Below, one piece after another: positions 51,934 through 52,109 of a stretch of DNA of 64,000 nt. Under the pieces are notes generated by a model, which searched no databases, was not told where the DNA came from, and saw nothing but the letters and a program-made list of their open reading frames with translations. Origin of the DNA: Escherichia coli (GTDB taxonomy: Bacteria > Pseudomonadota > Gammaproteobacteria > Enterobacterales > Enterobacteriaceae); the NCBI RefSeq assembly GCF_003790525.1, contig NZ_CP033633.1. The stretch is one strand, 5' to 3'. Each line of letters opens with the position of its first letter. Position 1 is the first letter of the stretch. The translations under genes were made by a program, and so were the position numbers.

Positions 51934-52109
51934 TCAGCCCTGTTTAAACCCCGGCTTGCCGTTTTTGGCTCGCCATTCCTTCACTTCTTTTACGATACCT
52001 TCAGGACTGTCCTCACGGTCATCCCTTGGATAATAAATAAGATCAGAACCATCAGGGTGTTCAGCTAATCGACGAAATTCATCCACTAATTTATCGTCAT
52101 CAGCCTCAG
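51934..52109 (-). pseudogene. colicin DNase-type immunity protein (Im family), N-terminally truncated by IS1
   Basis: Minus frame [57 protein letters not shown] stop parallels the Im9 C-terminal two-thirds from memory; frame runs into the IS1 end at 52110. Confidence 0.65.

Follow-up and report, generated by a model that had tools for sequence, protein, structure and literature searches.

A 3' remnant of an Im2-like DNase-bacteriocin immunity gene joined to IS1 beside eitD in Escherichia coli

A 176-base segment between eitD and a copy of IS1, in the 64,000-nucleotide stretch of Escherichia coli DNA that was analysed (contig NZ_CP033633.1; hereafter the window), was found to be the 3' part of an immunity gene of the DNase-bacteriocin type. 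The reading favoured here, at a probability of roughly 0.92, is that an orphan DNase-bacteriocin immunity gene (imm), which lies beside eitABCD on ColV/ColBM-type APEC plasmids, has here been reduced to a non-functional 3' remnant. The features of the region are given in Table 1.

Table 1. Positions in the window of the immunity-gene remnant and neighbouring features
Feature	Position	Strand	Remarks
3' remnant of Im2-like DNase-bacteriocin immunity gene	51934..52109	-	PF01320 and Im2 matches; pseudogene
Sole start-codon-bounded ORF in the remnant, GTG start, 50 aa	51934..52086	-	From the ORF list
eitD, MFS transporter	50669..51856	+	PGAP: MFS transporter EitD; 1188 nt; convergent with the remnant
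IS1 copy 1, IS1A-like, 768 bp	52110..52877	+	Left inverted repeat abuts the remnant; PGAP: IS1A family transposase
Low-GC DNA beyond IS1 copy 1	52878..54361	.	Unrelated to the immunity locus
Resolvase C-terminal HTH fragment	52893-53072	+	In the low-GC segment
Endonuclease/exonuclease/phosphatase-family (EEP) gene, 287 aa	53332-54195	-	In the low-GC segment
IS1 copy 2	54362..55129	-	Inverted relative to copy 1, 4 mismatches in 768; brackets the EEP segment with copy 1

Identity and extent of the fragment

The initial annotation had proposed a fragment of a DNase-type immunity gene of the Im2/Im9 family, and alignment bore this out. When the remnant was compared with PDB chain sequences by phmmer, the colicin E2 immunity protein was the top match (E = 4e-30, query residues 2-58 aligned to residues 30-86 of Im2), followed by Im7 (~1e-24), the pyocin S2 immunity protein (4.5e-21), Im9 (~2e-19) and Im8 (1e-18). 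The Pfam profile Colicin_Pyocin (PF01320) was matched at E = 5.2e-26 over model positions 28-82 of 82; NCBIfam held no model for the immunity protein. Minus-strand translation of 51934-52110 gave 58 letters, and the peptide quoted in the initial annotation was found within them.

The extent of the fragment was established against an intact allele of 258 nt and 85 aa (locus L001, 5919-6176; WP_000412701.1). The remnant corresponds to nt 83-258 of that gene, comprising two nucleotides of codon 28, codons 29-85 and the stop codon, so that residues 29-85, or 67% of the protein, are retained, in line with the C-terminal two-thirds proposed earlier. Nucleotide identity between the 176-base remnant and positions 6001-6176 of L001 was 99.3%; there were two differences, both synonymous, and the retained protein sequence was identical. 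The identical bases in the public plasmid pE32-3 carry the PGAP label 'bacteriocin immunity protein, incomplete, missing N-terminus'.

A fortuitous resemblance to the Im family, or an origin of the reading frame outside any immunity gene, was favoured by the short length of the fragment and by nothing else; its probability is effectively nil, given the E values for Im2 (4e-30) and PF01320 (5e-26) and the near-complete nucleotide match to the 3' end of an intact annotated gene at the same genomic position. A second candidate immunity gene in the window (16109-16237; tblastn, 36% identity over 47 aa, E = 0.016) was rejected as a chance match, since it lies inside a flotillin/band-7-type gene.

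Im2 (ColE2-P9 ceiB; PDB 2NO8, 2WPT and 3U43) is the closest of the characterised proteins. It shares PF01320 and the same length class, and the intact allele is 86% identical to it over 83 aligned residues. Within the fragment 49 of 57 residues are identical to Im2, and the C-terminal half is nearly invariant, as is the helix III motif DLIYYP (in SDLIYYP), which was invariant in an alignment of immunity proteins. This motif is the DNase-binding hot spot of the family (Asp51, Tyr54 and Tyr55 in Im9 numbering), and helix II is the specificity helix of Im2/Im9-type proteins. In contrast to the conserved motif, five of the eight differences from Im2 (A30E, D33N, D37R, R40E and A43T) fall in helix II, which argues that the cognate specificity is probably not E2; the window copy also differs from Im2 in having no residues 1-28. 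Im7, Im8, Im9 and the pyocin S2 and AP41 immunity proteins belong to the same fold family and share the helix III motif (E values from 1e-25 to 1e-14), but they are more distant than Im2 and have live toxins alongside, on small Col plasmids or Pseudomonas chromosomes.

The IS1 junction and its plasmid setting

The fragment had initially been placed at 51934-52109, with its frame running straight into the end of IS1, and this proved exact. The left inverted repeat of IS1 copy 1, GGTGATGCTGCCAAC, begins at 52110 and the right end lies at 52877; insA (52165-52440) and insB' (52359-52862) are present, and the copy qualifies as an IS1 element. IS1 has terminal inverted repeats of about 23 bp, and a primary insertion is flanked by a direct target duplication of 8-9 bp. 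Copy 1 shares the 768-bp length, the canonical inverted repeats and the insA/insB' frames of IS1A; it differs in that no 9-bp target duplication was found around it, the flanks being CAGCCTCAG and CGAACTAAA. The missing duplication points to a secondary rearrangement rather than a simple primary insertion. The duplication was also absent when copies 1 and 2 were considered together, whether as a composite transposon or as the product of intramolecular replicative inversion. Since the DNA past copy 1, with its resolvase fragment and EEP gene, is unrelated to the immunity locus, the junction is itself best read as a rearrangement, probably produced by IS1-mediated adjacent deletion, IS1-IS1 recombination or replicon fusion.

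The low-GC segment beyond copy 1 has a GC content of 37-40% and occurred in 34 genomes, always on plasmids. It has the look of a composite transposon, but lacks a target duplication. The EEP protein has a signal peptide and only weak similarity to ExoIII. In other plasmids this DNA is sometimes found beside a full resolvase and an arylsulfatase gene.

Positions 40000-64000 of the window were covered completely, at about 99.9% identity, by the chicken E. coli plasmid pE32-3 (NZ_CP119733.1, 129.7 kb); the rest of the window was mostly collinear with it, and the biggest breaks were mobile elements. pE32-3 is a mosaic IncFII/IncI1-like plasmid that carries eitABCD together with a ColBM region (cbi, cma and cmi), and the window represents a poultry-type (APEC) virulence plasmid of the ColBM/eit kind. 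The eitD gene, the last of the eitABCD iron-uptake cluster, fixes the position of the locus in all related plasmids.

The 5' fragment and the DNase gene for which a search had been called for were not found in the window or in all 129.7 kb of the near-identical pE32-3: the 5' part of imm and the HNH stub that precedes it in related plasmids were absent from both, with only chance matches of 11-15 nt. The statement that the cognate colicin and lysis genes lie outside the window also held, as no DNase colicin or lysis gene was found in it.

The same junction between IS1 and imm was present in p135-1 (locus L002, 5261-5545), where the far side of the element is joined to a truncated cytochrome b562 region (window equivalent 55432). 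In the window, cytochrome b562 is intact (within 55305-55694) and lies beyond IS1 copy 2. The different far-side partner in p135-1 suggests that further IS1-IS1 recombination followed the original event. One-step models that would derive the window from an intact-type plasmid were considered, and none that was simple fitted; nikB' is inverted relative to imm-eit when compared with pSA186_2.

Several other observations were made on the plasmid. The colicin B gene of pE32-3 is split by IS1 (128619-129494 and 531-1193, outside the window), and cbi, cma and cmi are intact; PGAP labels the N-terminal piece of colicin B 'colicin-like bacteriocin tRNase domain-containing protein'. Colicin B is thus a second bacteriocin locus hit by IS1 in the same plasmid family. 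A third IS1 copy (63808-64000) runs off the end of the window, at a point where the pE32-3 record (3289) has a cmi-integrase junction; the source replicon therefore differs there, perhaps through loss or rearrangement of its ColBM region (cba', cbi, cma and cmi). The intergenic sequence between the imm and eitD stop codons (51860-51934) contains a perfect hairpin with a 9-bp stem, CAGAGCGGG-CTGTTA-CCCGCTCTG, and a stretch of about 75 nt that begins precisely at the imm stop codon recurs at 97% identity on plasmids of approximately 70 kb (for example NZ_CP018973.1), where it is unannotated.

States of the locus in other genomes and its probable history

Among 5,426 complete E. coli genomes, the 3' part of imm was carried by about 151, in four states. 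An HNH stub followed by intact imm was found in approximately 100 genomes (100 records at ≥80% coverage). In about 34 genomes the 5' 43 nt of the gene had been replaced by unrelated DNA, which gives a 91-aa chimeric ORF in the PGAP annotation, with no toxin. An IS1 junction identical to that of the window was present in 18 genomes, whose hosts were chickens, wild birds and humans. In one genome imm was interrupted by an IS66-family insertion with an 8-bp duplication, GGTGAAAC, at imm nt 76-83 (locus L005, NZ_JBXRYO010000003.1, EC13 p2, 4519-7226), 1 bp from the IS1 breakpoint at nt 82|83. The intact and IS66 states accounted for all carriers of the 5' part of imm except at most one record.

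The arrival of two different insertion sequences at nearly one spot of a 258-nt gene could be either a coincidence or the sign of a local hot spot. At least three independent disruptions of one small gene argue for relaxed selection, and the four-state decay pattern fits relaxed selection at this locus better than maintained selection.

In a representative of the 5'-replaced state (locus L006, NZ_CP069991.1, 4941-5216), the first ~43 nt are foreign and the gene lies beside a RelE/ParE pair; the chimera is annotated as a TTG-started 91-aa 'bacteriocin immunity protein' (WP_000877662.1). The two synonymous variants of the remnant (C96 and G243) are common to alleles of this type and differ from the L001-type intact allele, and the immediate ancestor of the window copy may therefore already have been damaged at its 5' end. 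The flanking eitD of the window was, by SNP comparison, closer to the L001 type, so that the signal on the ancestral allele is mixed.

The intact gene adjoins eitD in pSA186_2 (the L001 plasmid) and in about 100 other complete E. coli genomes; its product (WP_000412701.1, UniProt Q3L7G4) is encoded on at least 1000 contigs. Directly upstream, a 77-aa ORF annotated as 'HNH endonuclease signature motif containing protein' abuts the imm start codon. The alignment of this stub to colicin/pyocin DNase domains (PF21431) covers their C-terminal half, and DNase homology begins only at about position 5666 of L001, where the adjoining sequence is unrelated and recurs, dispersed, on hundreds of other plasmids. 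In NCBIfam the only model hit by the stub was that of a T6SS effector, in its C-terminal DNase region and far below the cutoff. In a word-index search of 5.8 billion proteins, which was of limited sensitivity and returned 11 candidates, no full-length toxin exceeded 76% identity to the stub; all relatives at ≥76% were fragments of at most 122 aa. When PLSDB was searched with the stub by tblastn, no close full-length toxin was found, the next identity class (≤61%) being the E-type colicins. Compared with the ColE2 system, the relatives' stub is only 58-61% identical to the E-type colicin DNases, and neither a full colicin nor a lysis gene accompanies it. No lysis gene followed the immunity gene in any state of the locus.

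These results bear on the two alternatives that the initial annotation had left standing. The first, an orphan immunity remnant, agrees with the relatives, in which the intact gene is accompanied by only the 77-aa stub or by no toxin at all. The second, that IS1 displaced a bacteriocin operon, was not upheld, because the operon is already dead in the relatives; with only a stub left in their module, the toxin was presumably lost before IS1 arrived. It is accordingly very unlikely that the immediate ancestor of the plasmid still had a live DNase colicin operon, with toxin, immunity and lysis genes, for IS1 to displace or destroy. Although DNA was lost or exchanged at the junction of IS1 copy 1, as the lack of a target duplication indicates, and IS1 also splits the colicin B gene in the same replicon family, every state without IS1 in the 5,426 genomes had the stub or no toxin, and the protein and PLSDB searches, like the lack of a lysis gene, gave no trace of a closely related complete operon.

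For the orphan-remnant reading, we infer the following order of events. A nuclease-bacteriocin/immunity pair would have been acquired, and its toxin gene would have been reduced to the 77-aa HNH stub, leaving the intact orphan immunity gene seen in the ~100-genome state. In one lineage, represented by the 18 genomes that include the window, an IS1 end would then have been joined to imm at nt 82|83, and one of the three IS1-mediated routes named above would have removed the stub and the DNA upstream of it along with the first 82 nt of imm.

Live modules of related type were found in Klebsiella aerogenes prophages and on the Erwinia tasmaniensis plasmid pET46 (loci L010-L014; pET46 CU468133.1 1928-5310), and members from both species belong to the 90%-identity cluster of the immunity protein. 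Each module comprises a 375-380-aa Gp34_trimer/Peptidase_S74 protein, a 633-690-aa Pyocin_S/Col-Pyo_DNase toxin and the immunity gene. The immunity proteins are 87-89% identical to the intact E. coli allele, and that of pET46 has the same helix II residues as the eit-linked allele (a 14-residue stretch). The immunity gene stands directly after the toxin stop codon or within one base of it, as imm does after the E. coli stub; the stub and the C-termini of these toxins share 63-66% identity, a slightly closer match than that to the E-type colicins, and the DNA of stub plus imm is 77% identical to pET46 over 500 bp. Whereas the K. aerogenes and E. tasmaniensis loci keep a full toxin, the E. coli relatives retain only its last 77 codons and the window none. 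Judged by these comparisons, the prophage and pET46 toxins appear to be the closest live relatives; no close live parent was found. The Gp34_trimer/Peptidase_S74 partner is tail-fibre-like, and in K. aerogenes the module lies in lambdoid prophages, in their early region, with replication gene P on one side and ninB on the other.

A survey of E. coli plasmids (Nat Commun 2025, PMC12546727) has described orphan immunity genes for bacteriocins: the gene stands beside a heavily truncated toxin, the truncation is common to many plasmids, and there is a link to virulence plasmids with siderophore and eit genes. The locus described here shares the retained immunity gene and common truncated toxin on eit plasmids. 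The survey's filter was >99% identity to an immunity gene that has a cognate toxin, and a single DNase-type orphan was reported; at 86% identity to Im2, the eit-linked orphan would fall outside this filter, and the window copy is decayed rather than maintained. A literature search on eitABCD together with colicin immunity found no paper that discusses this gene. The feature itself is already known as a RefSeq/PGAP incomplete-immunity pseudogene in identical public plasmids and is nothing new in kind: it is one more IS1-made pseudogene on a mosaic APEC plasmid, an instance of ordinary gene decay that carries little weight alone. A useful by-product is the recognition of an eit-adjacent Im2-like orphan in about 150 of the 5,426 complete genomes, in four states of decay, which adds a small data point to the debate on whether defence is the reason that orphan immunity genes are retained (PMC12546727).

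Coding capacity of the remnant

The intact allele was modelled with AlphaFold at moderate confidence (pLDDT 65.7); the predicted helices span residues 11-22, 29-42 and 63-76. This layout agrees with the known topology of Im2/Im9. Relative to the model, the remnant begins at the first residue of helix II and helix I is gone entirely. The window copy has neither its own start codon nor the full four-helix domain of about 85 aa, and is therefore regarded as a gene fragment derived from a member of the family rather than as a functional member; nor does it lie directly downstream of a cognate HNH DNase gene, either in the window or in pE32-3.

No ATG or Shine-Dalgarno-like sequence was found for the remnant, and the frame, when continued into IS1, has a stop codon and no ATG. 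A promoter scan of the coding (minus) strand upstream of the remnant gave no match; the sole match was on the plus strand, inside the IS1 end. Since helix I, an ATG, a Shine-Dalgarno sequence and a promoter are all missing, the remnant is almost certainly non-functional. That it confers no immunity can be held with high but not absolute confidence, a caveat being that the remnant has no inactivating point mutations.

The remaining possibility is that the remnant is still made, from the GTG at 52086 or by read-through from IS1, as a mini-immunity protein of 50-57 residues that partially cross-protects against DNase bacteriocins. Residues 29-85 include the binding epitope of helices II and III, and the whole DNase-binding surface, with the specificity residues of helix II and the hot spot of helix III, is kept in the remnant; the ORF is intact and free of degenerative mutations, and the junction persists in 18 genomes. 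This persistence is nevertheless explained by hitch-hiking on a successful plasmid, the missing helix I contributes to the hydrophobic core of the four-helix bundle, the coding strand has none of the expression signals that were looked for, and the repeated, independent disruption of the gene indicates relaxed selection. Production of a protective mini-protein is thus considered extremely unlikely, and the preferred reading remains that of a non-functional remnant.

The intact eit-linked allele, as distinct from the window copy, may be kept by selection, as an orphan defence against some uncharacterised DNase bacteriocin of enterobacteria. The 50-aa GTG-started ORF of the remnant has been deposited by some submitters as 'colicin-E2 immunity protein' (KDT54310.1).
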